Assembly: GCF_000012285.1 (NCBI RefSeq)
Contig: NC_007181.1
Location: 330,001-362,000, forward strand
Reading direction: 5' to 3'
From: Sulfolobus acidocaldarius DSM 639
Lineage (GTDB): Archaea; Thermoproteota; Thermoprotei_A; Sulfolobales; Sulfolobaceae
Length of the DNA stretch: 32,000 bases
Shown here: positions 3,891 through 24,502 of the stretch, one piece after another
Layout of the letters: the number at the start of each line of letters is the position of its first letter
Position numbering within the stretch: the stretch's first letter is position 1
The notes under the pieces: model-generated
What the model saw: the letters and a program-made list of their open reading frames with translations, nothing else
What the model was told of the DNA's origin: nothing
Databases searched by the model: none
Position numbers and translations under genes: made by a program

Positions 3891-4880
3891 TTACATCTCT
3901 CTCAATTTTAACAATCTAGCCCCTACACCCAGGAAGACTAAAGTTAAGATGATAATCGTAATCAAGTAGATAGGATTTGGTAACACGTTAAACACTATTG
4001 CCTGCCTAACCACGTCATTAACAATCGAAACTGGCTGATACTCTGCAATTAAACCTAAAATTGATGGGAATATTGATGACGAGTAGAAAGCATTACTTAT
4101 GAACATAAGTGGGAAAACGATAAATGTAGGAACAACATTAGCTAAGAAGATCTTATCCTTAGGCGTCAAACCTAATATAATGGCACCCAGACCAGAAAAC
4201 ATCAACGTCGAGAGAATTAGTACTCCCAAGAACTCTAATATAGAAACAGGGGTAAAGCCCAATATTAAACCTAAACCTAATACAACTATAGAGGATAAGA
4301 TAGTGATGAGAACCTCGTAGATCATTAAAGATAATACCCACTCATAGTCACGTAATGGTGAAGAAGCTAATCTGTCCACAAGTCTATCCCTATAATAACC
4401 TGACCCTACACCAGTAACACCAAATATACCATTAGATAAGGCTATTACCCCAATCACACCTGAAATCTCATATGCTACAGGAGTATTTCTGGTTAAGATA
4501 AGTTGAGAACTAAATATACTAGTTTGATTTGTGTAGTATGAATTTAGATAAGACTGGAGTAAAGGGACATATTCTTGTTCTAGTTGATTATAGTAGACGT
4601 TTTTGGACGTTAAGTTGATAAAAATTACAGGCTCATACTTGACTATAGAAGGAGAGCCACCAATATAAGCTGTAAATAGTCCTGATGCATTAACGTATTT
4701 TCCAACCTTCTGAGCGTTTTCACCAGTCAAATACACTGTAGCATGGGGTTGAAATGCATTCCCTAACAGCGAGAACACCAGGGCTAAAATTAACGGAAAG
4801 AATATCACAAAACCTAATGTAACTCTACTACTCAGGTTATCCTTAATTATAGCCCTAGTAGTCGGAATTACGTTTCTCAA
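3891..4880 (-). CDS. ABC-2 type transporter permease
   Basis: 329 aa. One N-terminal TM, a large extracytoplasmic loop, then 5 C-terminal TM helices, which is the ABC-2 exporter architecture. The start overlaps the stop of the upstream ATPase gene by 26 nt, suggesting an operon. Confidence 0.75.
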   Translation of the reverse strand: MRNVIPTTRAIIKDNLSSRVTLGFVIFFPLILALVFSLLGNAFQPHATVYLTGENAQKVGKYVNASGLFTAYIGGSPSIVKYEPVIFINLTSKNVYYNQLEQEYVPLLQSYLNSYYTNQTSIFSSQLILTRNTPVAYEISGVIGVIALSNGIFGVTGVGSGYYRDRLVDRLASSPLRDYEWVLSLMIYEVLITILSSIVVLGLGLILGFTPVSILEFLGVLILSTLMFSGLGAIILGLTPKDKIFLANVVPTFIVFPLMFISNAFYSSSIFPSILGLIAEYQPVSIVNDVVRQAIVFNVLPNPIYLITIIILTLVFLGVGARLLKLREM

Positions 4881-5604
4881 AGTTTTCCCCCCTTAACTCT
4901 CTCATTAACTCAAGATAAGCATCTTCCAATGAGGAGCTATTAAATTCATTTACAAGCTCCCTGGGAGAAGTCTCCTTGATCATTTTCCCCTTATAAATAA
5001 CCACAACCCTATCTGCTAACTTTTCAGCTTCGTCTAAATAATGAGTAGCTAGAAATATTGTAATTTTCTTTTCCTTTAAGGCTCGAATTATATCCCACAT
5101 CTTTCTCCTTGACTCAGGATCTAATCCAACAGTAGGTTCATCCAGAAACACAATCTTTGGGTTACCGACTATACCACAGGCTATAGCTACTCTTCTCTTT
5201 AATCCCCCAGACAAATTCCTGAATCTCTTCTTCTCATGTTCCTTTAAATCTAAAAGTTCTAAAACCTCTTCGACCTTATTTTTCGCTTTATAAAGTGAGG
5301 CAAAGTACTCAATATTTTCTCTTACACTTAAATCAGCAAAACCTTGAAATTCCTGTGGTACACTACTTACCATTTCTCTTATTTTTTTACATTCCTTAGG
5401 AACTTCATAGCCTAAGACTATAACCTTGCCCTTAGTTGGCTTTAATACACATGAGAGGATTTTCACTGTAGTCGTCTTTCCAGCACCATTGGGACCTAGA
5501 ATTGTGAAAATTTCTCCTTCATTAACATTAAAGGATATGCCCCTCAAAGCCTCTATTCCACCCTTATAAACTTTCCATAAATCTTCAATAGTTATAATAC
5601 TCAT
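4855..5604 (-). CDS. ABC transporter ATP-binding protein (ABC-2/DrrA-like)
   Basis: Walker A GPNGAGKTT, Q-loop, signature LSGGLKRR, Walker B IVFLDEPTVGLD, H-loop ATHYLDE. The start is set at ATG 5604 (MSIITIEDLWKVY...). The 88 codons further upstream in the ORF track have no ABC homology and overlap the divergent gene. Confidence 0.9.
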   Translation of the reverse strand: MSIITIEDLWKVYKGGIEALRGISFNVNEGEIFTILGPNGAGKTTTVKILSCVLKPTKGKVIVLGYEVPKECKKIREMVSSVPQEFQGFADLSVRENIEYFASLYKAKNKVEEVLELLDLKEHEKKRFRNLSGGLKRRVAIACGIVGNPKIVFLDEPTVGLDPESRRKMWDIIRALKEKKITIFLATHYLDEAEKLADRVVVIYKGKMIKETSPRELVNEFNSSSLEDAYLELMRELRGENFEKRNSDY

Positions 5605-5632
5605 ATAGTTAGCATGAGTTAGGGAACCTATT

Positions 5633-6574
5633 ATGCGTTTCGGAAAATTAAATCCTAAAGCCTTCCTCCACAGATTACCCATAGGAAATTGTGTAGTATG
5701 CCCAGGCATAGGAGAAGACGATGCATACGTAAAAGTAGAAGGCGAATATCTTGTTATACACTCTGATCCAATAACAGAAACAGGCAAGGATGCAGGATAT
5801 TTGTCTGTTGTAGTTGCCTGTAATGACGTAAATATGAAAGGGGTTGAATGTAAGTCAATAATTACCACCCTTTTACTTCATGACGAGGAAAGTCTATCTC
5901 CTGTCATTGAGGGGATAAGTGAGGCATGTAACATACTGAAGTGTAAAGTAGTTGGTGGGCATACTGAGCTAACCAAAGGATTAGACAGAGATATTGTAGT
6001 AACTACAGCTTTTTCATTTTCTAATCACGTTCTACGCCTCTCAGACGTAAGGGAAAATGACTATATAGTTCTTTTCGGTAACCCTGGAATTGAGGGCACT
6101 TGGATTTTGGCAAATGAATATGAGGATAAACTGAGTAGACTGGGAGTTAGTAGAAACCTCATTGAAAGAGCCAAGAGATTCAAATATCTTATTCCAGTGC
6201 AGGATAAAGCTATGAAAGTTAAGGACTATGCAATATCAATGCATGATGCTACGGAAGGTGGTATTTATCAAGCATTATTGGAAGTGGCTCAAGCTACTAA
6301 CCTAAGAGTAGTTGTAGAAAAGGAGAAAATACCTTTACTAGAGGAAACTGTCGAGATCACTAAAGCACTGAATATAAACCCATATACGCTAATTTCGTCT
6401 GGAGCCTTCATAGTTATAACTAGAGACTATGAAAAATTAACTCGATTAGGAGGAGTTTTAATAGGTAAACTCAAGAGGGATACACCTGCACTTGAGGTAA
6501 ACGGTGAAGTTTACACTGAGGATTTTGAAGAGGAGTTGGTAAGGTTTGAAGGCTATAATAATGGCGGGAGGTAA
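5633..6574 (+). CDS. AIR synthase-related protein (PurM/ThiL/HypE/SelD superfamily, ATP-utilising), specific function unknown
   Basis: N-terminal domain: GKL...GEDDAYVKV.G.YLVIHSDPI.....AGYLSVVVACNDVNMKGVE...VVGGHTE. C-terminal domain: MHDATEGGIYQALLEVA. These are the two PurM-fold domain signatures. The 3' end overlaps cobY. Confidence 0.8.
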   Translation: MRFGKLNPKAFLHRLPIGNCVVCPGIGEDDAYVKVEGEYLVIHSDPITETGKDAGYLSVVVACNDVNMKGVECKSIITTLLLHDEESLSPVIEGISEACNILKCKVVGGHTELTKGLDRDIVVTTAFSFSNHVLRLSDVRENDYIVLFGNPGIEGTWILANEYEDKLSRLGVSRNLIERAKRFKYLIPVQDKAMKVKDYAISMHDATEGGIYQALLEVAQATNLRVVVEKEKIPLLEETVEITKALNINPYTLISSGAFIVITRDYEKLTRLGGVLIGKLKRDTPALEVNGEVYTEDFEEELVRFEGYNNGGR

Positions 6575-7037
6575 GGGAAGTAGAATATCCCCATATAAAC
6601 CAATCCTAGAAATATGTGGTTTTCCGATGTACTACTGGGTTTATAGAAGTCTGAGAGAGTTTGCAGAGGAGATATACCTTGCAATTACCCCTTGGAGTTC
6701 CCTTATCTTCTCAGATATTCCTAAGATCATTACATATGGTAATGGTTATGAGAATGATGTTATAGAAGCTGTTAAACAAGTAGGATTTCCTGTTATAGTC
6801 ACACCCTCTGATACGCCATTAATTCCTAAACACGTGTTTATGAAACTGATCAATGATTGTAGGGCTCAAATCTGCTCCATCAAGGACGTAAAAGACTACG
6901 TAGGAATTAGCCTGTGGAAATCTTTGAAGTTAAACGAATACCAGGATATACTAGTTGAGGAAGAAATCCTAAATGTAAATACTCCTGAAGATTATAGGAA
7001 AGTCAAAAATATATGTGGCAATATAGATGAAAACTAA
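6546..7037 (+). CDS. cobY: adenosylcobinamide-phosphate guanylyltransferase, archaeal CobY type (NTP-transferase fold)
   Basis: N-terminal (M)KAIIMAGGKGSRI nucleotidyltransferase P-loop, small size (163 aa), and cobalamin gene context. The TTG start at 6546 is preferred because it preserves the beta-strand before GGKG. An alternative ATG lies at 6561. Confidence 0.6.
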   Translation: MKAIIMAGGKGSRISPYKPILEICGFPMYYWVYRSLREFAEEIYLAITPWSSLIFSDIPKIITYGNGYENDVIEAVKQVGFPVIVTPSDTPLIPKHVFMKLINDCRAQICSIKDVKDYVGISLWKSLKLNEYQDILVEEEILNVNTPEDYRKVKNICGNIDEN

Positions 7038-7783
7038 TGGCTAATAGAATTATAGTCTTCTTTCCGGTCAGGGGAATTACAGCGATTCTTTACGTATTCC
7101 TCGCCTTATTTCTGTTCATTATCTCACTTAGCTACTTCACCTATTTATTTAGACTAATAGGACTGTCCCATGGATTAGCATTCGTTTTCTCTTCTTTATT
7201 AACAATCTTCAGCTTTTTATTCAGCTCCGTGAATATTGTTGTCAAAGAGGTTCAAAGGGAAAGAGAGCTAGTACCAGAAGTAGATGTAGTTTATGTATTT
7301 GGAATCCCTCTTCCTGTTACAAGATTGTCCATAAAGCCTAGGAAAACATTGATAGCAATTAATGTTGGAGGATGCCTAATTCCCCTAATAATCTCCATTC
7401 TATTAATATACTTTGCTTTCCATAATTTACACAACATAATACTTCTCGTTGTAGATGTTATAATCCTGATTGCAGCATCAAAATACTTTTCAAAAGTCAT
7501 GGAAGGTGTAGGAGTAGTTATGAATCCTTTAATTCCGCCAATTATCGCAGGGATTTTCAGCGTTTTACTCTTTCTACATAACCCTTATCTAGTTCCTATA
7601 TCGGCATATATCAGTAGTGTATTTGGCACACTAATTGGGGCAGATTTACTTAATATAAGAAGTATATTAGAAGCCAACCCTCAAATTGTGAGTATAGGAG
7701 GAATGGGAACATTTGATGGAATATTCCTATCAGGCTTATTCTCTATAATTATAGGAGAACTCCTTTTAGCCCTAATTATCTAA
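7037..7783 (+). CDS. DUF1614 family integral membrane protein
   Basis: 248 aa with about 6-7 TM helices. The motifs INVGGCLIPL and SIGGMGTFDGIFLSG match what I recall for DUF1614. The ATG overlaps the cobY stop (TAATG at 7035-7039). Confidence 0.55.
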   Translation: MANRIIVFFPVRGITAILYVFLALFLFIISLSYFTYLFRLIGLSHGLAFVFSSLLTIFSFLFSSVNIVVKEVQRERELVPEVDVVYVFGIPLPVTRLSIKPRKTLIAINVGGCLIPLIISILLIYFAFHNLHNIILLVVDVIILIAASKYFSKVMEGVGVVMNPLIPPIIAGIFSVLLFLHNPYLVPISAYISSVFGTLIGADLLNIRSILEANPQIVSIGGMGTFDGIFLSGLFSIIIGELLLALII

Positions 7784-8063
7784 ACCTAAGCGGTTCTCCT
7801 CTCCTGGTCTTTATCTCAGCTATACCTTCTTTTCCCTCCTTATATCTCATCTTAACCTTTCCACCTTCAAAGACAGCCTCAATGTATCTAATATCCTCGT
7901 CATCCCATCTGGCGTACTCTATGATGTCACCAAGCTCAAACTTTTCAGAAATACCCCTCAGCATCCTTAATTCATAGTCCCTTATTGGCTCTCTTCTTTT
8001 AGGTGTTGTAAAAGCGTATAGTCTTCTCACAATTATTACTCTTTGGTCATACCTAATAAGCAT
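7776..8063 (-). CDS. hypothetical basic 95-aa protein, last gene of the cbi operon
   Basis: The ORF starts 6 nt downstream of the cbiF stop on the same strand. It is Lys/Arg/Glu-rich, has no Cys or His and no TM segment, and I recognise no family. Confidence 0.5.
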   Translation of the reverse strand: MLIRYDQRVIIVRRLYAFTTPKRREPIRDYELRMLRGISEKFELGDIIEYARWDDEDIRYIEAVFEGGKVKMRYKEGKEGIAEIKTRRGEPLRFR

Positions 8064-8069
8064 ACCGTT

Positions 8070-8867
8070 TTATGCTTCATCAACTACTTTCTTTTTCGGT
8101 CTAAATGAATGTGCATGGGAAGGATCGTACACACTAGACCTTATTTGATCCTTATATCTGTTTGGATCTGCAACCTTACCCACAATAATCATACTGTCCT
8201 TCGTCAACTTTTCAGCCTTAACTTTCTGAGCTATATCACCAACTGTTCCTTTGAGTATCTTCTGCTCAGGCCACGTTGCTTTGTATACTACAATTACTGG
8301 CATATCGTCAGGTACTCCTCCCTCTTTCAGTTCCCTAACTACCTTATCTATGAGTTGAACACCTGTATATATTGCCATTGAAGCACCTTTCATAAGAAAG
8401 GGTGCATAGTCTTTTATTGAACCCTCCATAGGAACTGCACCGGAAGCTCTTGTGATAATAACTGTTTGTGAAATCTTAGGTAAGGTTAACTCAATACCTA
8501 GAACACTTGCGGTTGCTATTGCAGCAGTTATCCCGGGAACTAATTCATAAGGTATTCCTGCATCTTGCAGAGCCCAAATCTCCTCTATAAGGGCGCCATA
8601 TATGGAAAAGTCTCCGGATTTTAACCTAGCTATTAACTTTCCCTCGTTGGCTTTCTTTATCATTATATCAGTTATCTCCTCCAAAGTTAAGCTTGCTGTA
8701 TTTACTATTTCAGCGTCCTTCCTAGCCCACTTTAATACTTGAGGATTAACTAATGATCCAGCGTAAAGTACTACATCAGCGTCCTCTATAACGTTTTTAG
8801 CTCTTACAGTAATAAGTTCAGGATCTCCGGGACCTGCACCTATGAAAACAACTTTACCCTTTTTCAT
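8070..8867 (-). CDS. cbiF: cobalt-precorrin-4 C11-methyltransferase
   Basis: VVFIGAGPGDPELITVRA...VVLYAGSLVNPQVL is the CbiF/CobM-specific YAGSLV signature within the class III tetrapyrrole methylase fold. Confidence 0.9.
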   Translation of the reverse strand: MKKGKVVFIGAGPGDPELITVRAKNVIEDADVVLYAGSLVNPQVLKWARKDAEIVNTASLTLEEITDIMIKKANEGKLIARLKSGDFSIYGALIEEIWALQDAGIPYELVPGITAAIATASVLGIELTLPKISQTVIITRASGAVPMEGSIKDYAPFLMKGASMAIYTGVQLIDKVVRELKEGGVPDDMPVIVVYKATWPEQKILKGTVGDIAQKVKAEKLTKDSMIIVGKVADPNRYKDQIRSSVYDPSHAHSFRPKKKVVDEA

Positions 8868-9525
8868 TATTTCTCACCTTACATATCAACATTGAAAAAT
8901 AATCTTTATCGTACTCATTTTCACTCCACGGTATAACCTTCTCCCCGTCTAAATAACACCTCCTTGCATACAGAAGATCATAGTCGTCTTTAAGTTCCTC
9001 CGATATTTTGTCCAAGTTCTCATTACCCTTCAATACTATGATGGTCTCAAAGTCCTGTTTAACCTTTGAAATCAGATCTAATCGGTCAGCGGGAATAATT
9101 GCTATAGCCTCATTTCTTAAGGCTAAAGGCATGAAAGCCTTTGAAGCACATGCAGTTATAGACGAAACACCGGGGACAATCTCAACACTATTAAAACATC
9201 CAAGATAATTACTTACCCTAAAAAATGTACTGTATAGGGAGGGGTCTCCAAGAGTAACAAAAGCCGAGAGAGACTTAGATTTACTACAAATTTCCTCTCC
9301 TATTCTTTCCAAATCCTTTGGGTCAACGTCCTTTTTCATTGGAAAACCCAAAGTGACTATCTCTGCCTTACTGTACTTCTCCACTATACTCAAGGCTAAG
9401 CTCCTGTTAGTGCCAGTTGAATAGGGCACAAAAACGACCTCAGCTTTACTTAGAATTTCCGAACCCCTTACAGTTATCAGATTTGGATCTCCAGGACCTA
9501 AACCTATAACATACAACTGTCTCAT
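8854..9525 (-). CDS. cbiL: cobalt-factor II (precorrin-2) C20-methyltransferase
   Basis: LYVIGLGPGDPNLITVRG...VVFVPYS..., 223 aa. Tetrapyrrole methylase of the CbiL/CobI type. Overlaps cbiT and cbiF at both ends. Confidence 0.85.
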   Translation of the reverse strand: MRQLYVIGLGPGDPNLITVRGSEILSKAEVVFVPYSTGTNRSLALSIVEKYSKAEIVTLGFPMKKDVDPKDLERIGEEICSKSKSLSAFVTLGDPSLYSTFFRVSNYLGCFNSVEIVPGVSSITACASKAFMPLALRNEAIAIIPADRLDLISKVKQDFETIIVLKGNENLDKISEELKDDYDLLYARRCYLDGEKVIPWSENEYDKDYFSMLICKVRNNEKG

Positions 9526-10100
9526 TTTTTCTCACCATATATTATGAAAATTGGGTTTCTTGAAATCATAGCATATCCCTTGCTCGTTTTCATTCCCTTT
9601 GCAACTATTACTTCAATCACTTCAGCCTTATAGCCTAATTCGCTGAGAGTGTGTAAAGCCTTTACTGCACTTTCAATCAGAATGGCATCAAGGACAATCA
9701 TACCTCCCCTTCTAATCTTTTCACTAACAACAGGTATGATTTCTTCTAACCTTTCAGTACCACCTATGAATGCAGAGTCAAGTTCATCATTTATTTTATT
9801 CAATACCTCTGGTGCTTCACCCTCAATAATCTCCACGTTTCTAAGGGAGAATTTCTCCACATTTTTCCTTGTAAGTTCCACAGCCTGAGGATCCCTCTCA
9901 ACAGCATACACTTTACCCTTCTCCCCAACAATTAGCCCTGCCTCTACAGAAACACTACCTGTTCCACTGCCCACATCTAGGAACTTTGCACCGTAGAATA
10001 GCCTAGCCTTGGAAAGAGCTAAAACTCTTATCTCCTCCTTAGTCATAGGGATCTTCTCCTCTCTTATAAATTCCTCATCAGGGATACCTGGGACTCTCAT
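9522..10100 (-). CDS. cbiT: cobalt-precorrin-6B C15-methyltransferase (decarboxylating)
   Basis: GIPDEEFIREEKIPMTKEEIRVLALSKARL....FLDVGSGTGSVSVEA is the classic CbiT N-terminus plus a class I SAM-binding motif. Confidence 0.9.
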   Translation of the reverse strand: MRVPGIPDEEFIREEKIPMTKEEIRVLALSKARLFYGAKFLDVGSGTGSVSVEAGLIVGEKGKVYAVERDPQAVELTRKNVEKFSLRNVEIIEGEAPEVLNKINDELDSAFIGGTERLEEIIPVVSEKIRRGGMIVLDAILIESAVKALHTLSELGYKAEVIEVIVAKGMKTSKGYAMISRNPIFIIYGEKK

Positions 10101-11164
10101 ACTTCACCACTCTTTGCCATAATTTTACCATCCTCAGAGATAACTACAACTCCTAATTTTAATTTACTCACTCTTTTTAGTTTCTCGAGTGCTCTATCTG
10201 ATACCACTTTCATAACCTTCTGCCGTTCTTCATCTGTGAGATATGATAACCCCTCTGAGATGGAAAGGGATTTCACTATTTTTTGGATTTTTTCCAGGGA
10301 AATGCCTGCTACTACCGACGAGAAAGTCAAAGTCTCTAACCTTGCGTCACCGAATTTACTGTGAGTGTTTAGCATTCCTGCAGCTACCTTAACGAGTTTT
10401 CCGGGTAAACTAACAAGAATCACTTGAGAAAACCCTAACTCCTCAGCTACCTTTAACGATGAACCTACGTTGTCCCCTATCTTGATGACTTTATCACCGT
10501 AAATTTCCCTAGCGAACTTAAAACTAGTATTCCCTGGAGCAAGGACTAAAGTTTTATGACCTGTACTTTTTACTACACACGCTTCAGACTTTATATGCTC
10601 GATATAATCCTCATCACTTACAGGATATTCAATTCCTGTAGTACCAAGTATTGAAATACCTCCTTCAACTCCAACTAAAGGGTTCATAGTGTTCTTTGCC
10701 AACTCCTCTCCCTTAGGTACATATAATTTTACGTAAACACCAGAACTTACCACTTCCTTTACAGCGTCAATAATCATCTGTTTAGCTATTGGACTAATGG
10801 ATTTATCTCCCACATCTCCTTTAAGTCCAGGTCTAGTTATTGTGCCCACCCCTTCTTCTGCTGTAATGGTTATAGTCTGAGAGTTACTCCTACCTGAACA
10901 CGCAATAATTTCAAGACCGTCAAGTATATCAGGATTGTCCCCAGAAAACTTCTTTGCAGAGGCACAAAACTCACTCTCTTTTCTACTGTAATTTCCCACT
11001 GATATCTCTAGTCTCAGACCAATAGGCGTTGGGATGGTGACAGTTTTTGGTGTTTCGTTTTTAATCAAAAAGATAACTGAAGCCTTTGATGCTGCTGCGG
11101 CAGTTGCACCAGTAGTTATTCCAAATCTCTTAAGTGTTGACATCAAGGCTGTATTTCCTCTCAT
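10097..11164 (-). CDS. cbiD: cobalt-precorrin-5B C1-methyltransferase
   Basis: FGITTGATAAAASKA N-terminal motif and about 350 aa length, typical of CbiD. An alternative start is Met8 (11143). Confidence 0.9.
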   Translation of the reverse strand: MRGNTALMSTLKRFGITTGATAAAASKASVIFLIKNETPKTVTIPTPIGLRLEISVGNYSRKESEFCASAKKFSGDNPDILDGLEIIACSGRSNSQTITITAEEGVGTITRPGLKGDVGDKSISPIAKQMIIDAVKEVVSSGVYVKLYVPKGEELAKNTMNPLVGVEGGISILGTTGIEYPVSDEDYIEHIKSEACVVKSTGHKTLVLAPGNTSFKFAREIYGDKVIKIGDNVGSSLKVAEELGFSQVILVSLPGKLVKVAAGMLNTHSKFGDARLETLTFSSVVAGISLEKIQKIVKSLSISEGLSYLTDEERQKVMKVVSDRALEKLKRVSKLKLGVVVISEDGKIMAKSGEV

Positions 11165-11885
11165 ACCCTCTTGGCGTCAATATTCTATTTCCCCACAAAT
11201 AGCTACGTGAATTCCCAACAACCACTGTAGTAATCATGTTAATTTTATCTTCGTATTCTCTCCAGTTCGAGAGCGTCGTGGTAAATACCTCTTCTGACTC
11301 CCTATAAGCACCTTTCACTATTCCCACTGGAGTCTCAGGCTTCCTATACTCTGAAATAATTTTCATGGCTTTTTCAAGAAGAGGCTTATTTATAGGGTTA
11401 TACAGGACTATTACAAAATCTGCCTCTGCAGCTTTTCTCACCCTGAATAGGATATCCTCCGCAGGGACTAGTAAGTCACTCAGACTAATTGAGGCGAAAT
11501 CCATTGATAGCGGTGAACCAAGTCTAGATGCTGCAGCTAACCCTGCAGTAACACCGGGAATTACCTCAAAGTCTACCTGAATTTTATTCTTATACATCAT
11601 TTCCAAAGTAATTCCAGCCATTCCGTAAACTTGTGGATCGCCACTTGAAATAAGAGAGACAACATTTCCTTCCATGGCTTTTTCCAAGGCTGTTCTAGCC
11701 CTATAGATCTCCTCTTTCATTCTGGCAGTTATGACTTCCTTACCGTCAGTTAGGTCTTTCACTAAATCAGCATAAGTGGTGTAAGCAACGATTACATTAC
11801 TCTCCTTTATGGCTTGAACTGCTCTAATCGTTCTCATCTCTGGTGAACCAGGACCTACACCAACAATATACAATTTGCCCTTCAT
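11130..11885 (-). CDS. cbiH: cobalt-factor III (precorrin-3B) C17-methyltransferase
   Basis: KLYIVGVGPGSPEMRTIRAVQAIKESNVIVAYTTYADLV is the CbiH/CobJ pattern (GPG, then xYxxY). Confidence 0.9.
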   Translation of the reverse strand: MKGKLYIVGVGPGSPEMRTIRAVQAIKESNVIVAYTTYADLVKDLTDGKEVITARMKEEIYRARTALEKAMEGNVVSLISSGDPQVYGMAGITLEMMYKNKIQVDFEVIPGVTAGLAAASRLGSPLSMDFASISLSDLLVPAEDILFRVRKAAEADFVIVLYNPINKPLLEKAMKIISEYRKPETPVGIVKGAYRESEEVFTTTLSNWREYEDKINMITTVVVGNSRSYLWGNRILTPRGYERKYSLDVNT

Positions 11886-12883
11886 ATCCTGACCCTCCTA
11901 ATTAGTTCATTAATTATTGCAACTGCAATATTACTTCCACCATAACTTCCCCTTACTACTATACATGGAATACCACTTTTTATCAGTTGTTCTTTTACTT
12001 CGCTTGCGTTAGTAAATCCTGGAGGAGATGCAACAACTAACGGAATGTCAACCTTTCTTTCCTCATGAATTCTTAACACCTCTAACAAAGCAGTAGGTGC
12101 ATTACCTATTACAACAATCTTTGATGAGTTTAGCCCAAGTCTCATTGCAGCTGCAGTCCTGGTTATACCCATTTTTTTAGCTAATTCTGATGAGTTATCA
12201 AGGTAATTCTCGACCTGTTCCCACCTAATACCGGCTTTCACCATTTTAACATCAGTTAGTATCGATATACCTGATCTCAAAGCTTCTAGACCACTCCCTA
12301 TTGCATCATAAGATATGTATACATGTTTAGCTAATTCAAAGTTCCCAGATGCGTAGACAGCCCTTGCGATTACCTCTAGCTCTTCATCATTAAAAACGCT
12401 GAAAATTTCTCTTAATTTCTCTCTTATCATGTTCATAGTATTTTCCTCAATCTCCTCAGGGTCTTCAATATAATGACCTTCTTCAACGTCCTTAAATGCG
12501 GATTTTATCCTGTAAAAAATAGCAAGTTTAACTAGTTCAGAATCTGCTAAAGGTTTGGTTATATATGCATAAATCCTCTTTCCGTTGTATGTTGTCTCAC
12601 TCCATCTGTAAAAGTCAGAAACGTTTAACTCGCCCATAATGTCATGGGCGACGTGATTTCCCCTGCCGAGAAATGCTAAGGCAAAAATAAAATGATCATA
12701 ACCATGTGATAAAAGTTCATTTAACCGCGTACGCCAATTAGGTTCAGTGAATTCATTATGTGTTAGATAAACTGGAATTCCCAGTTTCCTTTCCACATAC
12801 GATGTGACCTCTCCCATATCTTCAACAAACGTATTCCTTCTAGAACCATGAGTTAAAATTAAAACTGCAGTATTTTCTCGCAT
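11882..12883 (-). CDS. cbiC: fusion protein: small sirohydrochlorin cobaltochelatase (CbiX-S-like) N-domain + cobalt-precorrin-8 methylmutase (CbiC) C-domain
   Basis: N-domain: AVLILTHGSRR...PVYLTHNEF...FIFALAFLGRGNHVAHDI (CbiX-S pattern HGS ... FLxxGxHxxxDI). C-domain: DPEEIEENTMNMI...RAVYASGNFE...ILTDVKMVKAGI...VIGNAPTAL...PPGFTNA.E.K....GIPCIVVRGSYGGSNIA (CbiC/CobH pattern). The start is set at ATG 12883 (Met15 of the listed ORF), which has a TATA-like box at -26. Confidence 0.8.
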   Translation of the reverse strand: MRENTAVLILTHGSRRNTFVEDMGEVTSYVERKLGIPVYLTHNEFTEPNWRTRLNELLSHGYDHFIFALAFLGRGNHVAHDIMGELNVSDFYRWSETTYNGKRIYAYITKPLADSELVKLAIFYRIKSAFKDVEEGHYIEDPEEIEENTMNMIREKLREIFSVFNDEELEVIARAVYASGNFELAKHVYISYDAIGSGLEALRSGISILTDVKMVKAGIRWEQVENYLDNSSELAKKMGITRTAAAMRLGLNSSKIVVIGNAPTALLEVLRIHEERKVDIPLVVASPPGFTNASEVKEQLIKSGIPCIVVRGSYGGSNIAVAIINELIRRVRI

Positions 12884-12905
12884 TATGATGGATAGGGTAT
12901 CCAAA

Positions 12906-12913
12906 CATATAAA
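12906..12913 (-). promoter_or_regulatory. TATA-box candidate for the cbiX::cbiC-cbiH-cbiD-cbiT-cbiL-cbiF operon
   Basis: TTTATATG on the minus strand is centred about 26.5 nt upstream of ATG 12883. Confidence 0.35.
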
Positions 12914-13099
12914 CTTATGGCACAAACACGAATCTCTATAAAATTAAAATCGGAAGCACTATTTATAAAGCGTCATAGATTACATTAGTTACGTTAAGAC
13001 TGTAAAAATTCCCTCTATTTAGTCACATGTAACTTGTTCAGAAAGGCACTCTACATCTTACACATACAATAAACCTGAACTTGTAATCCCTTACCTTGA

Positions 13100-13756
13100 C
13101 TAACTTAATTTTACATAGACTATACTCATGTCACTGAATTTCAAGTCCATATCCAATATTTCCTTTGCCATGAAATGATTAACCTTTTCGTCACTGAAAC
13201 TGAGCCTCTCCATCACAACCATTTCAGGATTTAGACCCAAACCAACTAACCTCTCCGCTATCTTCTTTACTCCATATGAATAAGGTTCTGGGATTATCAA
13301 TAGATCCCTGCCCAAGGCTATACTCTTATCTATTTCAGTGTAATCTAATTCCCCTCTAATATGAAAAGTCATAAAGACTACCTGAGATAAATCCTTCTCA
13401 ACTAAAGCCAAAGCCCTCAATACAGAGGATATCCCAGGTACAACTTCATATTTAACATCAAACTGTCTGCATGATTCCCTGATCCTTCCAACGAACTGAA
13501 AATCAGAGACTGAGGGGTCGCCATGGTCTAATATAGCAACATCTTGTTCTCTGGCTCGTTTTACCAAATCGGGTATTTGCCTATCCTGGTCTTTATAATT
13601 TAGATATACTACCTCTTTTCCTGATAAATTAAATCTAGAAACTACACTCTGCCAACCGGCAACTATTTTACACTTCTCTATAATCTTTAGAGCCTTAAGT
13701 GTTATTAATTCAGGGTCTCCTGCACCTACACCCACTATGTAGAGCGTTTCAAACAC
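13100..13756 (-). CDS. cbiE: cobalt-precorrin-7 C5-methyltransferase
   Basis: LYIVGVGAGDPELITLKALKIIEKCKIVAGW... is a roughly 200-aa tetrapyrrole methylase of the CbiE type. It overlaps the cbiG end by 8 nt. Confidence 0.8.
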   Translation of the reverse strand: MFETLYIVGVGAGDPELITLKALKIIEKCKIVAGWQSVVSRFNLSGKEVVYLNYKDQDRQIPDLVKRAREQDVAILDHGDPSVSDFQFVGRIRESCRQFDVKYEVVPGISSVLRALALVEKDLSQVVFMTFHIRGELDYTEIDKSIALGRDLLIIPEPYSYGVKKIAERLVGLGLNPEMVVMERLSFSDEKVNHFMAKEILDMDLKFSDMSIVYVKLS

Positions 13757-14726
13757 CTGCTATTGCAACTGTTATTTTGCTCTTATAACTTATTTTCCTT
13801 AAGATCAACTTCGCAGAAGGACCTCCTGCTATGAATGCGCTGATCTCAGCTACGCCCTTTATTCCGAGTTCCTCCAATTTCTCACTAGGTGGGGTTAAAC
13901 ATTCGTCATTAAATGAATTTATAGTCTCCCAGTCGATCTTTTGAAACGGAATATTCAGACTTTTAGAGACTTCCTCTACAACCTCCCTTACTGAAGCTAT
14001 CTTCAACACCCTGTCCAATCCTACTTTCAACTGACCTAGAGCAAAATATATTGCCTCCTTAATTTCCTCGACAGAGGCTTCTTTCTTTGCACCTATTCCA
14101 ACATACAATTTCAATGGTCTGAGATAAACAGTGTTGTCGTCACCCATGTTCTCGTTTCCGTCCTTAATAACTTTAACAAAGTACTTACATTCAGCATCTT
14201 TACCTAAAACGTAATTGCCCTTAACTACTGGTAAAGAGTTCACGCCCTCAACACATACCTTTTCTCCCCTAATTAAAGCTGAGGTTACCCTGACTATCGC
14301 GTTAACATTAATCACCTTGCATATTAGTAAATTTGCCAACTCTTCTACGCTAGTCACCTGGTTTATCTCACTTGCTGTGGTTATTACGGGCGTGGCGTTT
14401 AATATTCTGGATATCTCAGAGGCGAGTTGGTTTGAACCCCAGTGGGAGCCCAACAAAGGAATAACAAACTTCAGGGAGTCATCAACTGCAATAACGGAGG
14501 GATCTACGTCTTTACTCTTAGCATACTTACATACAGTCCTTACAACTCCACCTAATGCCATAACGAAAACTAGTGCATCATAACAATTCCAAATCTTGCC
14601 TAACAAATTATCGTCATATTTAAAAAGCACACTTGGGTACTCTTTCTTAATAATGTTCCAGAGCTTTCTTGCACTGTCCTCAGCTGTAGCGTAAATTACT
14701 GCTATCCCTCTCCTCCAGTATATCAC
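13749..14726 (-). CDS. cbiG: cobalt-precorrin-5A hydrolase
   Basis: 325 aa with the three-part CbiG layout: N-terminal IAVIYAT..., middle ...[13 protein letters not shown]..., C-terminal ...[15 protein letters not shown]....L......L..IASV..K..E. GTG start overlaps the upstream stop (GTGA). Confidence 0.8.
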
Positions 14727-20532: not shown

Positions 20533-21552
20533 GTGAAAGCCGTAATTATTGAAAATGGCAGAGCGTCAATAAAGGATATGGATAAACCTTCAATCAAGGA
20601 AAAAGGAGATATTATAATAAAGATGAAAGCCTGTGGGCTATGTGGTACTGATATCGAAAAACTTCGCGGACAATACACAGCGTCTCAGCCAATTATAGGT
20701 CATGAACCATCAGGGATCATTGAGGAGTCAAGTGTAGATAGTCTAAAACCCGGTCAGAGAGTATTCGCACATCATCACGTTCCTTGTTATGAGTGTTATT
20801 ATTGCACTCATGGAAGTGCAACCATGTGTCCTCACTATAGAAGGACTAATATTGAGCCCGGAGGTTTTGCAGAATACTTTAGAGTCCCAGCCTGGAATGT
20901 GAAAAGGGGAGGTGTACTAGTTCTTCCTGATCATGTTAGTTTTGAGGAAGGAGCCTTCATTGAACCTTTGGCAACTGTTGTAAGAGCACAAAGGAGGGTC
21001 AAGTTAAACAGAGGAGATAATGTGTTGGTAGTAGGAGCAGGACCTATGGGATTGCTCCACGTAATGCTAAGTAAGGTAAATGGAGCCTCTAAAACCATAG
21101 TAACTGACATAGCAGATTTTAGGGTTGAGTATGCTTATAAAGTAGGGGCTGATTACTCATTTAATTCTAAAAAGATAGACACTATAAATGAGGTTAAGAA
21201 ACTAACAGACGGTAGAGGAGTGGATATAGCTATTATAGCTTCAGGCGCACCTTCAGCAATCTTATCAGGTCTTCTCTCTGTAAGAAAAGGAGGTCAAGTT
21301 CTCCTGTTTGGAGTTCCATTTAAGGGTACTGTCCTGAACTATGATATAAGTGATCTCTTAAACAACGAAATCTCAATAATCTCAAGTAATGCCGCTATTG
21401 AAGAAGATACTGTAGATGCGTTGAAAATAATATCTGAGAGAAAAATAGACGTTTCCAAACTAGTAACCCATAAATTTACTATTGACCAGTTCAATGAAGC
21501 CGTAAGGGTAGCTGAAGAGGGACAAGCCATAAAGGTAATAATACAAGATTGA
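20533..21552 (+). CDS. zinc-dependent medium-chain alcohol/polyol dehydrogenase (threonine/sorbitol dehydrogenase-like subfamily)
   Basis: Catalytic Zn ligands CGLCGTD...GHEPSGII, structural Zn loop CYECYYCTHGSATMC (C-x2-C-x2-C-x7-C), and Rossmann motif VVGAGPMGL. GTG start. Confidence 0.9.
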   Translation: MKAVIIENGRASIKDMDKPSIKEKGDIIIKMKACGLCGTDIEKLRGQYTASQPIIGHEPSGIIEESSVDSLKPGQRVFAHHHVPCYECYYCTHGSATMCPHYRRTNIEPGGFAEYFRVPAWNVKRGGVLVLPDHVSFEEGAFIEPLATVVRAQRRVKLNRGDNVLVVGAGPMGLLHVMLSKVNGASKTIVTDIADFRVEYAYKVGADYSFNSKKIDTINEVKKLTDGRGVDIAIIASGAPSAILSGLLSVRKGGQVLLFGVPFKGTVLNYDISDLLNNEISIISSNAAIEEDTVDALKIISERKIDVSKLVTHKFTIDQFNEAVRVAEEGQAIKVIIQD

Positions 21553-22395
21553 AAAAATAGCGAGAAAGAGGATTAGAGTCACTTTAAATAGATTTAGGGC
21601 AATTTTCACGTGGTTATCTTCTGGTAAATTCCATCCATTTAAACCCACGTTATAAAATCCAATTTTTTCTAACCGGACGTTTAGTATTGATGAAGCAAAT
21701 GAGATGGGATATTTAGCATTGGGGCTCTCTATTTTGCTCTCTTTCAGTATCCTTAGAGTGCTTTTTGGTCTTAACCCTAAAAGATATGCTGATAATAACA
21801 TCAACAAGGCAGTTATTCTGGCTGGGATGTAGTTTAAAATAGTATCTAATTTAGCGGAGAACCATCCCTGTTCCCTGTACTCAGGTGTCTTATATCCGAC
21901 CATGCTATCCATGGTATTCGCTAACCTTTGTAATAATGCACCTGGATAGCCTAAAACGAGAAACCAAAATATTGGGGATATTATTCCATCTACAGTACTT
22001 TCAAATAATGACTCTATTACGGCAGATCTAACGTGACCCTCACTTAACTCATAAACATTTCTCCTGACTAACTGCTGTGAGTATGACCTACTGTAAGTGG
22101 TAACAGGTGTGCTCTTCTTGACCAACGAATATAGTAACTTAATGGAAAAGGTGGTCTTTAGAAAAATGACCAGTAGTGGTAGTTCTACATACCAAGGAAA
22201 GTATAAAGGTATACAGAGGATGAACAGAATCGGAACGACAGACACTATCCAGAAGAATATTCCATAAAACCTGTTGGAGAAAGGTTTTATTAATCTAGAT
22301 GATATTTTCCCTACCCATACTACAGGATGTATTATAACTGGAGGTTCCCCTAAGGTAAGGTCAAAGAGTATTGAAAGATAAAGTAATGGTAACAA
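21460..22395 (-). CDS. cbiB: adenosylcobinamide-phosphate synthase
   Basis: N-terminal LFDLTLGEPPVIIHPVVWVGK (the CbiB/CobD GEP...HPV..G motif), multi-TM, 311 aa. The 3' end overlaps the convergent dehydrogenase gene by 93 nt. Confidence 0.9.
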   Translation of the reverse strand: MLPLLYLSILFDLTLGEPPVIIHPVVWVGKISSRLIKPFSNRFYGIFFWIVSVVPILFILCIPLYFPWYVELPLLVIFLKTTFSIKLLYSLVKKSTPVTTYSRSYSQQLVRRNVYELSEGHVRSAVIESLFESTVDGIISPIFWFLVLGYPGALLQRLANTMDSMVGYKTPEYREQGWFSAKLDTILNYIPARITALLMLLSAYLLGLRPKSTLRILKESKIESPNAKYPISFASSILNVRLEKIGFYNVGLNGWNLPEDNHVKIALNLFKVTLILFLAIFSILYYYLYGLSLFSYPYGFIELVNSKFMGY

Positions 22396-23108
22396 GTCTT
22401 CTCAGCAACTAGTAAGTAAATTGGAAAAGATAAAGTTATAATAGCTCCTACTATATCGCCTGACATCCCGTCAAAAACTAACTTAGCCATTAGGTAGAAC
22501 ACGAGAAGTAGGATAACGTAAGCCAAGATAAGTACAGGTGATGAGAAGAGTATTGCAAATACTTGTACGAGGAGGAATTTAATAGAGAATAGTTTGTCCC
22601 TCATTTTATCATGAAACACTTTTCCCAGATAACTACCGGGAATCGGCTTCATTAGACCTAGAAGGGATATTGCGCTTGCCCTCGCTAGAACCTCGGATGG
22701 GAGGAAGAACCACAGATTGCTTACATTCAAGTTAAGTGTAGCTATAAGAAATATAGAAAAATAAACTAAAAATAGACCTATAGCCCCCGACCCGGTCTGT
22801 AGATCATGAAGAACTTGCGGTCTTCTCTCCTTTCCCACCATCAATGCGTCCCCCATGTCCAATAGACCATCCAAATGGTGAAATCCCCTAATTATCTCCA
22901 CTGTAGGTATTAGTAGAAGAGCACCTAAGCTACCTATAAGCCTTATACCTAACAAGACAACAAACCAGTCTATTATACCTGTAATTATACCGACCATGAG
23001 TGGCGAGATGAAGGAGAACTCTGCTATCTCCTCTAAAGACGCACTCGGAGAAGGTATTATCGTGAAAAATGATAGTTGCCCTAATATTGCCTTTAATATC
23101 CTCCCCAT
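22350..23108 (-). CDS. cobS: adenosylcobinamide-GDP ribazoletransferase (cobalamin synthase)
   Basis: LGQLSFFTIIP N-terminal CobS motif, ...HLDGLLDMGDAL... motif, and about 6 TM helices. Overlaps the cbiB start by 46 nt. Confidence 0.9.
   Translation of the reverse strand: MGRILKAILGQLSFFTIIPSPSASLEEIAEFSFISPLMVGIITGIIDWFVVLLGIRLIGSLGALLLIPTVEIIRGFHHLDGLLDMGDALMVGKERRPQVLHDLQTGSGAIGLFLVYFSIFLIATLNLNVSNLWFFLPSEVLARASAISLLGLMKPIPGSYLGKVFHDKMRDKLFSIKFLLVQVFAILFSSPVLILAYVILLLVFYLMAKLVFDGMSGDIVGAIITLSFPIYLLVAEKTCYHYFIFQYSLTLP
23092..23099 (+). promoter_or_regulatory. TATA-box candidate for cobQ, embedded in the first codons of divergent cobS
   Basis: TTTAATAT is centred about 27.5 nt upstream of ATG 23123 and lies inside the cobS CDS. 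Confidence 0.3.
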
Positions 23109-23122
23109 AGGAATTAGTTATA

Positions 23123-24502
23123 ATGGCAGTTATAATAGCTTCCACAATGAGTGACTCAGGAAAATCCACAATTGTGACGGGCTTAAGCAAACTATTTCAT
23201 GTTAAACCTTTTAAAGCCCAAAACATGTCCCTGAATAGTTATGCAACATTAGATTATGGGGAGATAGCTTTTATTCAGGCTTATCAATCTATTGGCGCAG
23301 GTTTTTCCCCTGAGAGATATATGAACCCGTTATTACTTAAACCATCAGGTAACGGATTGTTAGAGGTCATCTTTTTTGGTGAATCGAAGGGTCTATTTAG
23401 ACCTCAAGACTACTATTCAACACTCAATTATTTTTGGACTGAAATAGAGAAAAATTTCTCTAATGAATTTATTGTAGAATCTGCTGGTGGTATAGAGCCA
23501 AATTTTTTAGATAAAGATTTAGCATTAAAAGTCTCTGCTAATTTTAACGTTCCAATTATTTTAGTTCTCGATATAGATAGGGGCGGAGCTTTCACATCAG
23601 CATTGGGATCTTATTTATCCTTGCCTGTTTCTTTGAGGGAAAAATTAAGGGGTTTTATAATAAATAAGTTTAGGGGAGATGAAAAGTTCCTGGAACCAGG
23701 GATAAAGTGGGTTGAGGAGAGAACAAATATGAAATACTTAGGCAGCTTACCGTATTTCGAGGAACCATTAATAATGCCAGAGGACTCCATGAACCTCAAT
23801 GAGGTAGGAAACGGAGAAATGGAGGTTAGTATAATAGCTTATCCGCAGATGAGCAATTTCAATGAGTTCTATGCCCTAAATAACTCTAATGCTCACCTTA
23901 AATTTGTAAAGAAACCTACGCAAATAACTGATTCAGACCTAGTGATCTTACCAGGTAGCAAAAATACAATAAAGAGTTTAGAGTGGCTTAAGAGCAGAGG
24001 CTTTACTGATTTCCTAAAGAGGAAACCCGTTCTCGGTATATGTGGGGGATTTCAGATCATGGGGAGTAAAATGATTGATAATAGTGGAGGACTAGAACTT
24101 GGAGATGTTAATCAGGTGGATGGACTAGGATTATTCGGAATTAACACTGTGTACGAGAAGGAAAAAGTCGTGAGTTTATCATCAGCCCAGTTAGGAATAG
24201 AGGGGTATGAAATAAGGAGAGGAAGAATAGAATACATCAATGAAGAGCCTCTAACCTACATCACGAGAAGAGGGAAAATGACGGTTTATGTGCCAGATGG
24301 AGTACTTAAAGGAGATAAGTTAGGTCTAAGTATTCATGGCTCCATGTTCTCCCCAGGAGGAAAGAAGGTTCTTAGCGAGGTATTTGGTCTTAAAATATAT
24401 GCTGAGGATTTGGAAACTGAAATAAAAAAGCAGGTAGATAATCTCTCACGCGTCTTAAAGCAACACGTAGATGTAGATAAAATTTATGAGCTATACATTT
24501 AA
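23123..24502 (+). CDS. cobQ: cobyric acid synthase
   Basis: N-terminal P-loop-like STMSDSGKSTIVTGL (CobQ/CbiP/DTBS-like domain) and a C-terminal GATase-like domain with GICGGFQIMG. Confidence 0.9.
   Translation: MAVIIASTMSDSGKSTIVTGLSKLFHVKPFKAQNMSLNSYATLDYGEIAFIQAYQSIGAGFSPERYMNPLLLKPSGNGLLEVIFFGESKGLFRPQDYYSTLNYFWTEIEKNFSNEFIVESAGGIEPNFLDKDLALKVSANFNVPIILVLDIDRGGAFTSALGSYLSLPVSLREKLRGFIINKFRGDEKFLEPGIKWVEERTNMKYLGSLPYFEEPLIMPEDSMNLNEVGNGEMEVSIIAYPQMSNFNEFYALNNSNAHLKFVKKPTQITDSDLVILPGSKNTIKSLEWLKSRGFTDFLKRKPVLGICGGFQIMGSKMIDNSGGLELGDVNQVDGLGLFGINTVYEKEKVVSLSSAQLGIEGYEIRRGRIEYINEEPLTYITRRGKMTVYVPDGVLKGDKLGLSIHGSMFSPGGKKVLSEVFGLKIYAEDLETEIKKQVDNLSRVLKQHVDVDKIYELYI

Follow-up and report, generated by a model that had tools for sequence, protein, structure and literature searches.

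Cobinamide kinase and guanylyltransferase activities are combined in the bifunctional bacterial enzyme CobU/CobP. CobY, as GTP:adenosylcobinamide-phosphate guanylyltransferase, would supply AdoCbi-GDP to CobS; the archaeal protein reportedly has no kinase activity, and salvage in archaea proceeds via CbiZ. We know of no archaea with a CobU kinase and, to our knowledge, late archaeal B12 steps that still have no assigned enzymes include threonine phosphorylation and salvage by routes other than CbiZ. Salvage genes typically show a patchy, accessory distribution. In Listeria innocua and Geobacillus kaustophilus, CblT/CblS pair a nucleotide-loop salvage kinase with a membrane protein. The PurM superfamily includes HypE, the carboxamide dehydratase of hydrogenase maturation, and true kinases such as the thiamine-phosphate kinase ThiL. 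Another relevant family, arCOG02159/COG4089/PF07758, is presented in the family passages of Makarova et al. (2015, PMC5898192) as ancestral and widespread in archaea, with Saci_0392 as the example. According to the same passages, it is linked in bacteria to SpoIIP and YphB, and a link to membrane remodelling has been proposed via bacterial SpoIIP.

The locus studied here is located in a window (the whole stretch of 32,000 nucleotides that was analysed) corresponding to positions 330,001-362,000 of the forward strand of Sulfolobus acidocaldarius DSM 639 NC_007181.1 (GCF_000012285.1). In window positions, its features are:

3891-4880, minus strand: ABC-2 permease (Pfam), divergent from the trio
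4855-5604, minus strand: ABC ATPase (Pfam), divergent from the trio; start at ATG 5604, judged by orthologue lengths of 243-256 aa
5605-5632, no strand: 28-bp divergent intergenic region between Saci_0390 and the ABC ATPase gene (sequence)
5633-6574, plus strand: Saci_0390, PurM/AIRS-fold, HypE/ThiL-like ATP enzyme of 313 aa (Pfam AIRS and AIRS_C), belonging to a Cys-rich Sulfolobaceae clade linked to CobY; stop codon TAA at 6572-6574
6546-6574, plus strand: overlap of the end of the AIRS gene with the beginning of the CobY gene, of 29 nt with the TTG 6546 start or of 14 nt with the ATG 6561 start (sequence)
6546 or 6561-7037, plus strand: Saci_0391, CobY-like MobA-family nucleotidyltransferase of 163 aa (NTP_transf_3)
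7035-7039, plus strand: TAATG stop/start junction of the CobY and DUF1614 genes, 1-nt overlap (sequence)
7037-7783, plus strand: Saci_0392, DUF1614/arCOG02159/COG4089 membrane protein (PF07758)
8070-14726, minus strand: eight cbi genes (profile matches in the window)
21460-24502: cbiB, cobS and cobQ, after the cbi genes in the window

The first-pass annotation had described three overlapping plus-strand genes inside a cobalamin supercluster. The open reading frames and both junctions were exactly as it described, and the supercluster was recovered as the eight cbi genes plus cbiB, cobS and cobQ. When read from the TTG, the N-terminus of Saci_0391 is MKAIIMAGGKGSR. Because this N-terminus is conserved in 13 of 13 aligned orthologues, TTG 6546 is the likelier start. 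The ends of the AIRS and CobY matches also overlap in the compared genomes, by 8-26 nt in eleven examples, and in relatives the CobY and DUF1614 genes either overlap by 4 nt or are 6-19 nt apart.

Comparison of 47 Sulfolobaceae genomes showed that the order AIRS-CobY-DUF1614 is kept in all 30 that carry a Saci_0390 orthologue (48-65% identity, 8 of 14 genera). The CobY and DUF1614 genes are adjacent in 42 of the 43 genomes carrying both, and the stop codon of the first frequently overlaps the start codon of the second. With the same order and tight junctions in 30 genomes from 8 genera, the arrangement exceeds what chance would give, and the proposal of a tightly coupled unit was borne out. 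Saci_0390-0392 is very probably a real operon; it is specific to the Sulfolobaceae, and conservation of the whole trio may stem from a single ancestral event. A general position beside cobalamin genes was not supported: outside S. acidocaldarius the trio is separated from CobS and CbiD by distances ranging from 50 kb to over 1 Mb, and within the Sulfolobaceae comparison the vicinity of the cbi genes is peculiar to S. acidocaldarius. The synteny comparison thus broke the proposed link between the trio and the cbi cluster and upheld the link to cobY; within the trio, the tie to B12 holds for this middle gene only. The divergent ABC pair is a frequent neighbour of CobY, also in genera that lack the AIRS gene. 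The ABC-2 transporter was considered as a B12 system and rejected, as an orthologue of the permease is found in G016, a genome lacking B12 synthesis, and in genome G020 the permease is 90 kb away from CobY.

Identification of the middle gene as cobY was supported: Saci_0391 is the best CobY candidate of the genome and is likely to be CobY. It matches NTP_transf_3 above the Pfam cut-off (40.7 bits). Its best NCBIfam matches, TIGR00454 (49.4 bits, cut-off 174.7) and CobY NF045495 (48.7 bits, cut-off 250), both fall below their cut-offs, and the NCBIfam match is confined to the N-terminal 106 residues. The best PDB sequence matches are Methanocaldococcus jannaschii CobY (2MZB/3RSB, E values 9e-7 and 2e-6), compared with 3e-4 for MobA. 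The MAGGxGxR loop (nucleotide-binding GGxGxR) is invariant in 13 orthologues, and four cysteines are invariant in the same alignment, in parallel to those of the AIRS partner. MocA and MobA are encoded by separate genes elsewhere in the genome, leaving CobY without a rival paralogue. Among the 47 Sulfolobaceae genomes, 43 carry a CobY-like gene, 44 CobS and 43 CbiD; all three are missing from G016, which is a one-contig genome. The product is probably an adenosylcobinamide-phosphate guanylyltransferase.

Assignment of Saci_0390 to the PurM fold was also confirmed. The protein matches AIRS (PF00586, 52.2 bits, cut-off 24) and AIRS_C (PF02769, 41.8 bits, cut-off 23.1), and its AlphaFold model (pLDDT 93.3) adopts the PurM fold, with HypE (Foldseek E 1.5e-24, TM 0.78) and ThiL (E 9e-23, TM 0.73) as the best PDB matches. 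All family-invariant residues are intact, namely D29, D45, D65, H110, E112, E154, H204, D205, T207 and GG; since every one of these active-site residues is kept, the protein has probably remained an ATP-binding enzyme that phosphorylates or activates a substrate. It scored below the cut-offs of the HypE (TIGR02124, 75.2 versus 251.6 bits), ThiL (TIGR01379, 55.3 versus 184 bits) and SelD (TIGR00476, 43.2 versus 125 bits) families; a paralogue, L011, is the better ThiL candidate of the genome (114.9 bits). A protein-cluster search returned generic HypE/AIRS clusters only. Five cysteines (C20, C23, C73, C99 and C104, including a CxxC) are invariant among 24 aligned Sulfolobaceae orthologues, and in the family alignment the set is present in 8 of 8 members of the CobY-linked clade and in none of the 48 others. 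This clade has 99% support and a long stem (length 1.2) in the tree. The five invariant cysteines and the long stem branch suggest that the clade may have acquired a changed substrate or a metal/redox site. The existence of this CobY-linked AIRS clade, with its long branch and five invariant cysteines, is the new observation of this analysis.

The distribution of the gene restricts the roles that can be considered. The AIRS orthologue is missing from 17 of the 47 Sulfolobaceae genomes, including the whole of three genera (g9, g12 and g13; 11 genomes). CbiD and CobS are present throughout these genera, and CobY in every genome but one, which is 87% complete. Because it is absent from genera that keep CbiD, CobS and CobY, the AIRS gene cannot be a general missing de novo step; it is accessory and not required for de novo B12 synthesis. 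A distribution complementary to that of CbiZ was looked for and not found, and both genes coexist in many genomes. CbiZ was not found in S. acidocaldarius, which has one FecCD-type importer. Families cobT, cobD, cobZ and cbiZ, thought to be missing from the window, were indeed not detected among the window ORFs scanned. The absence of CobD holds for the window only, as a CobD-like decarboxylase candidate of 317 aa is found at about 385 kb, and the supposed CobT gap is filled by an intact archaeal-type CobT (TIGR00303) near genome position 13-14 kb. An apparent lack of CobT throughout the genome according to Pfam DBI_PRT was a false negative, as revealed by weak matches in relatives, NCBIfam TIGR00303 and the intact orthologue. 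Since the archaeal CobT of Sulfolobaceae escapes this Pfam model, reconstructions of the B12 pathway could be misled.

The wider HypE-like family of Saci_0390 showed no association with B12. It is present in 167 of 201 Thermoproteota genomes, among them families that have no CobS, and it is absent from one family (f8) in which CobS was found in 28 of 28 genomes. Across the 201 genomes its distribution is uncorrelated, even anti-correlated, with that of CobS. A Pfam tally of the genes upstream of 74 relatives gave a mixed set (VanW, TPR proteins and ECF S components), with no cobalamin family among the 25 commonest neighbour families. A search of 79 loci outside Sulfolobaceae with Sulfolobus cobalamin proteins by single-sequence phmmer, an insensitive method, produced no matches. 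The family gene was found within 5 kb of CobS in only two cases outside Sulfolobaceae, and a shared operon was not indicated. In one genome (G173) a family gene is co-operonic with MetE-like genes, and in another (G184) it lies 3.4 kb from a partial CobS on the opposite strand, with the genes between them left unannotated. Genes of 175-179 aa located downstream of AIRS in Desulfurococcaceae are not CobY-like and have no Pfam match.

The third gene, Saci_0392, had been put forward as a possible corrinoid or cobalt transporter. The protein matches PF07758 at 165 bits (cut-off 23.9) and carries the invariant motifs N109-x-GG, GAD203 and GGxGTFD227G. Its model (pLDDT 94.5) has six transmembrane helices and a beta-rich loop between TM2 and TM3, reproducing the architecture given for arCOG02159 in the family passages of PMC5898192. 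The adjacency of this gene to its CobY-like partner, seen in 42 of the 43 Sulfolobaceae genomes with both genes and often with overlapping codons, speaks for a transporter serving the B12 pathway. Against it stand the archaea-wide distribution of the family and its bacterial link to SpoIIP and YphB, as these passages describe them, contexts unrelated to B12 in Thermococcus, another archaeon and an Acidoferrales bacterium, and its persistence in G016, where CobS, CbiD and CobY-like genes are missing. Comparison of the confident model with solved structures, transporters included, gave no convincing match (best Z 5.8, Foldseek E above 1), and no transporter family of Pfam or NCBIfam was matched. 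A text search of PMC5898192 found neither "CobY" nor "cobalamin", and the family passages do not mention the CobY neighbour. A corrinoid or cobalt transporter is therefore very unlikely, and a B12 link of any kind for DUF1614 is improbable. As DUF1614 has no B12 link elsewhere, membership in the Saci_0390-0392 operon is a weak predictor of function, and its place there is no good reason for the transporter label.

The same consideration applies to Saci_0390. The operon could be of historical origin only, with Saci_0390 performing the housekeeping reaction of its HypE-like family, DUF1614 having a general membrane role, and neither of them acting on B12. This is a serious possibility, somewhat short of evenly balanced, and it agrees with the distribution of the family relative to CobS, its heterogeneous neighbours, the lack of a B12 link for DUF1614 (in what PMC5898192 says of the family) and the dispensability of the AIRS gene in B12-making genera. 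It also agrees with the tree, where the clade is nearest to the TatD-linked Desulfurococcaceae orthologues and is not a fresh duplicate. However, 30 genomes from 8 genera have kept the tight overlap with cobY, the long stem and the five invariant cysteines specific to the clade point to a change of function once the gene lay beside cobY, and a second HypE-like AIRS family member in the S. acidocaldarius genome, L012, could take the housekeeping role.

Two other specific B12 functions were weighed. Saci_0390 could be the missing archaeal L-threonine kinase, replacing PduX or BluE in providing L-threonine-O-3-phosphate for CobD. The true kinases of the PurM superfamily favour this idea, as does the length of the CobD-like protein of this genome, which is too short for a Methanosarcina-type extra kinase domain; Tavares et al. 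reportedly described such a domain fused to the Methanosarcina CobD. However, the gene adjoins cobY rather than cobD or cbiB, and the three de novo genera mentioned above, in which the orthologue is absent, must therefore phosphorylate threonine in another way, making this function quite improbable. Least probable of all is a CblS-like alpha-ribazole kinase for the salvage of lower-ligand ribosides. It was suggested by some relatives (35-38% identity) that immediately follow RibU/FolT-type ECF S components, an arrangement that resembles cblT-cblS. Yet the trio includes no S component, CobT is intact in this genome, where a CblS would be expected beside a CblT-type S component and in the absence of CobT, and in 10 loci with bacterial relatives no cobalamin riboswitch was found upstream. 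Genome contigs were also scanned for a CblS sequence with the forward primer published for cblS of L. coryniformis, and no match was obtained.

The explanation that we prefer, tentatively and at nearly even balance, is a Sulfolobaceae cobY-DUF1614 operon with an accessory ATP-dependent AIRS step feeding CobY. The core of the operon would be formed by cobY and the DUF1614 gene. Directly upstream of cobY, the genomes of one sub-lineage (8 of 14 genera) carry an additional HypE/ThiL-like gene of PurM fold, which would have become translationally coupled to cobY. Saci_0390 would then catalyze an accessory step supplying CobY; whether the role of the AIRS gene is linked to B12 at all is itself almost a toss-up. 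In the preferred version, Saci_0390 would phosphorylate (adenosyl)cobinamide to AdoCbi-P, so that Saci_0390 and CobY together would provide both activities of bacterial CobU and a salvage route independent of CbiZ. Points in favour of this version are the gene order, the CobU kinase not known from archaea, the FecCD-type importer of S. acidocaldarius in the absence of CbiZ, and the patchy distribution of the AIRS gene. A specific assignment as cobinamide kinase is still doubtful, and it is equally doubtful that the Cys-rich clade is a PurM-fold kinase making AdoCbi-P or another CobY or CbiB substrate, e.g., L-threonine phosphate. If correct, no PurM-superfamily enzyme would have preceded it in archaeal cobamide nucleotide-loop assembly, and together with CobY it would give the Sulfolobaceae a CobU-like, CbiZ-independent route. 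The hypothesis is now narrowed to one accessory PurM-fold candidate with a cysteine signature in an operon with cobY, in a species, S. acidocaldarius, that is genetically tractable.

Among the known systems, HypE (PDB 2Z1E, 3VYT, 3VTI) is the best sequence and structure match of Saci_0390 (family profile E 1e-38 to 1e-40), and the two have the PurM fold in common, with counterparts of the STDS, GDTKV and RDATRGG motifs. Unlike HypE, Saci_0390 has no C-terminal PRIC cysteine tail to carry the carboxamide; its last cysteine is residue 104 and its C-terminus is EGYNNGGR. The setting differs as well, since the hydrogenase-maturation partner HypD (PF01924) had no match in the complete S. acidocaldarius genome. 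Saci_0391 is similar to archaeal CobY (PDB 3RSB) but shorter (163 versus 196 aa) and below the CobY cut-offs. Like CblT/CblS, the trio would pair a salvage kinase with a membrane protein; DUF1614, unlike CblT, is not an ECF S component. CobU/CobP offers a functional parallel, with two consecutive activities that would correspond to the putative kinase gene and the overlapping cobY, and the kinase-then-transferase gene order would mirror the reaction sequence. CobU, a P-loop protein, has no relationship to the PurM fold of Saci_0390; for simple phosphotransfer within the PurM fold, ThiL (PDB 3C9T), itself a small-molecule kinase, provides the precedent.

Pfam assigned the genes of the trio and the cobalamin genes around it as follows:

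5633-6574, plus strand: Saci_0390, AIRS and AIRS_C, stop codon TAA at 6572-6574
6546 (TTG) or 6561 (ATG) to 7037, plus strand: Saci_0391, NTP_transf_3
7037-7783, plus strand: Saci_0392, DUF1614
8070-14726, minus strand: cbi genes
21460-24502: cbiB, cobS and cobQ

The locus tags are those used for the AIRS (PurM-like) and CobY-like proteins in PMC12529230 and, for the DUF1614 protein, in PMC5898192. The window is part of a single-contig S. acidocaldarius genome, and the top protein match came from strain SUSAZ, at 96% identity. The coordinates, both overlaps of Saci_0390 with Saci_0391 (29 nt from TTG 6546, 14 nt from ATG 6561) and the TAATG junction between Saci_0391 and Saci_0392 (7035-7039) proposed in the first-pass annotation were all correct in the sequence, and Pfam bore out AIRS plus AIRS_C, NTP_transf_3 and DUF1614 as the families of the trio, as well as the cobalamin genes it had recognized nearby. 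Translation of Saci_0391 from the TTG gives the N-terminus MKAIIMAGGKGSR, a strand and glycine loop kept in 13 of 13 aligned orthologues.

A long GTG-initiated ORF (4855-5868, minus strand) that overlaps the AIRS gene was rejected as an artefact. Orthologues of the ABC ATPase encoded there are 243-256 aa long, which puts its start at ATG 5604, with 28 bp between it and the start of the AIRS gene. A 95-aa ORF (7776-8063, minus strand), which found no match in Pfam or NCBIfam, shares 8 nt with the 3′-end of the DUF1614 gene. In a genome of another genus, a homologue with 39% identity across 80 aa (locus L035:3746-4015) is likewise convergent on, and overlaps, the DUF1614 gene. Elsewhere in the window, two adjacent, overlapping plus-strand ORFs (28904-29311 and 29304-29723) correspond to the N- and C-terminal halves of the ADH-synthase/class I aldolase family (NF005556, TIGR01949) and may be a split or frameshifted single gene.

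The trio is very probably a real operon, and it is conserved. The AIRS orthologue (E < 1e-89; 48-100% identity) was found in 30 of 47 sampled Sulfolobaceae genomes, representing eight genera, and in all 30 it was followed by the CobY-like and DUF1614 genes in the same order and on the same strand, with match ends that abut or overlap. Of the 43 genomes with both a CobY-like gene and DUF1614, 42 have the two side by side, and 12 of these 42 lack the AIRS orthologue. Several genomes without the AIRS gene (genera g2, g12 and g13) have the divergent ABC-2 pair directly abutting cobY, which argues that the AIRS gene was inserted into, or lost from, an older ABC pair-cobY-DUF1614 unit. The trio had been described as lying inside a cobalamin supercluster. 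Gene order and coupling with cobY stood, but adjacency to cobalamin genes is not generally kept elsewhere: across the other Sulfolobaceae the trio is separated from CobS and CbiD by distances between 50 kb and over 1 Mb, and the neighbors of the Saccharolobus solfataricus trio are unrelated to B12. The location beside the cbi cluster is peculiar to S. acidocaldarius, and cobY is the only link between the trio and B12.

Judging from homology and gene distribution, Saci_0391 is probably CobY. It scored below the cut-offs of the curated CobY models (~49 bits, N-terminal half only). Its closest solved homologues by sequence are those of M. jannaschii CobY, and the MocA and MobA of the genome are separate, better-scoring genes. 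The distribution of the CobY-like gene in the 47 genomes tracks that of CobS and CbiD; in the single-contig genome G016 all three are missing and DUF1614 is retained. Four cysteines (C24, C105, C110 and C157) are invariant in 13 Sulfolobaceae orthologues aligned with the protein encoded at 6546-7037; they parallel five clade-specific cysteines in the PurM-like protein upstream.

The trio had been put forward as a possible missing step or steps of nucleotide-loop assembly or corrinoid salvage. Lower-ligand activation is not a gap, because the genome has an intact archaeal CobT. Although a Pfam DBI_PRT scan of the S. acidocaldarius genome returned no CobT match, weak matches in relatives led to a 347-aa protein that passed the 240-bit cut-off of the archaeal CobT model, TIGR00303, with 339.8 bits. 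An intact 340-aa orthologue, 63% identical to it, is encoded at about 13236-14231 (13.2-14.2 kb) of the S. acidocaldarius contig G000:C1 (L041:1504-2526, minus strand). In Sulfolobaceae, DBI_PRT (PF02277) overlooks this archaeal-type CobT or only just picks it up, and Pfam-based pathway reconstructions would wrongly call these organisms CobT-less. The genome also contains a candidate CobD-like decarboxylase at about 385 kb, two His_Phos_1 proteins and one FecCD permease; CbiZ and PgpA/CobZ were sought in it and not found.

The AIRS orthologue is missing from the 11 genomes of genera g9, g12 and g13, all of which keep CbiD and CobS, and 10 of which have the CobY-like gene (the exception, G038, is 87% complete). 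It therefore cannot be a step that every de novo producer needs, "the" threonine kinase for example, and what remains of the proposal is an accessory, probably salvage-type role. The operon logic favors an accessory step supplying CobY: the gene for a probably ATP-dependent PurM-fold enzyme lies immediately upstream of the gene for the probable AdoCbi-P-consuming enzyme and is translationally coupled to it, and S. acidocaldarius has no CbiZ. A distribution of the AIRS orthologue complementary to that of CbiZ was sought and not found. We consider that the chance of any B12 role falls somewhat short of even, and that the specific guess, cobinamide kinase, is unlikely. Nearly as likely as a B12 role is that the operon is historical only; conservation of the trio within one family may have its source in a single ancestral event.

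The wider AIRS family, whose members are 31-39% identical to Saci_0390, is very broad and is no B12 family. At least 599 loci turned up in genomes serving as species representatives, among them haloarchaea, Thermoplasmata, Bathyarchaeia, Clostridia and Chloroflexota. Of 201 Thermoproteota genomes sampled, 167 had the family. One Thermoproteota family (f8) has CobS in 28 of 28 genomes and the AIRS family in none, and several others, e.g. f12, f15 and f20, show the reverse pattern, with no CobS at all. Cobalamin families were not present among the 25 commonest upstream-neighbor families of the relatives, and no cobalamin riboswitch was found near bacterial members. Neighbors were mixed: several RibU/FolT-like ECF S components, TatD in Desulfurococcaceae, and VanW and TPR proteins in others. 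A comparison by eye of listed coordinates (150 of about 305 AIRS matches) gave two genomes, G173 and G184, in which, among the matches listed, an AIRS gene is no more than 5 kb away from CobS. In G184 the AIRS gene and a partial CobS are on opposite strands, 3.4 kb apart; in a third genome, G170, unrelated genes separate the AIRS gene from the cob genes.

The G173 locus (L128, G173:C1:1276000-1293000), from another family of the same order, carries a compact cluster that looks like a salvage type, with CbiZ, CobY-like, CobD-like aminotransferase, CobS and CbiB, and then Asn_synthase-like and Diphthami_syn_2-like genes. Its AIRS gene is convergent to the cluster, and overlaps and is co-operonic with two genes resembling MetE, the cobalamin-independent methionine synthase. 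RibU/FolT-like ECF S-component genes recur directly beside members of the AIRS family in Bathyarchaeia, other Thermoproteota and one Halanaerobiales bacterium (loci L003/L004/L005:7164-9023, L006:7463-8996, L028:5290-7056, L052, L062, L073 and L081). These look like an undescribed transporter-plus-kinase salvage pair; a riboswitch scan of L003 and L006 found none.

The suggestion that the DUF1614 protein is a transporter lost ground: adjacency was the one observation in its favor, G016 keeps the gene without CobS, CbiD or the CobY-like gene, and the genes around it in Thermococcus, another archaeon and an Acidoferrales bacterium have no relation to B12. PMC5898192 places DUF1614 (arCOG02159/COG4089) in the ancestral archaeal gene set and links its bacterial forms to SpoIIP and YphB. 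Homologues numbered 1669 proteins at E <= 1e-5. The model of Saci_0392 (7037-7783; pLDDT 94.5) has six helices and, between TM2 and TM3, a sheet of four strands, and found no convincing match among solved structures (Foldseek E > 1; best Z 5.8). The invariant motifs are NxGG, GAD and GGxGTFDG; the invariant aspartates of the last two (GAD, GTFDG) hint at a possible enzyme or ion site.

Saci_0390 belongs to a probably neofunctionalised PurM-fold clade. The CobY-linked Sulfolobaceae sequences had support of 99 and a long stem (1.2) in a quick maximum-likelihood tree, where they grouped with the TatD-linked Desulfurococcaceae clade and not with L012, a second S. acidocaldarius member 26% identical to Saci_0390. 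Every family-invariant residue is kept in the clade. Five positions (C20, C23, C73, C99 and C104) are cysteine throughout the clade but in no other sequence of the alignment; at the C73 position these other 48 members all have proline. C20 and C23 form a CxxCP motif immediately before the conserved GEDDA segment, and an acidic C-terminal tail, DFEEELVRFE, is conserved in and specific to the clade. Read from the alignment, these cysteines and the tail would be the signature of an altered function, or else of a metal or disulfide site gained anew.

The predicted model of Saci_0390 has a PurM fold (pLDDT 93.3), with TM scores of 0.78 to HypE and 0.73 to ThiL. A grouping with HypE or ThiL orthologues of established function did not hold: the protein was rejected as the ThiL of the genome, and its HypE score was far under the cut-off. 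HypE has a C-terminal cysteine and a HypD partner, whereas Saci_0390 lacks that cysteine and its genome has no HypD. HypE is the closest solved match to the AIRS family profile (E about 1e-39, compared with about 1e-21 for ThiL and SelD).
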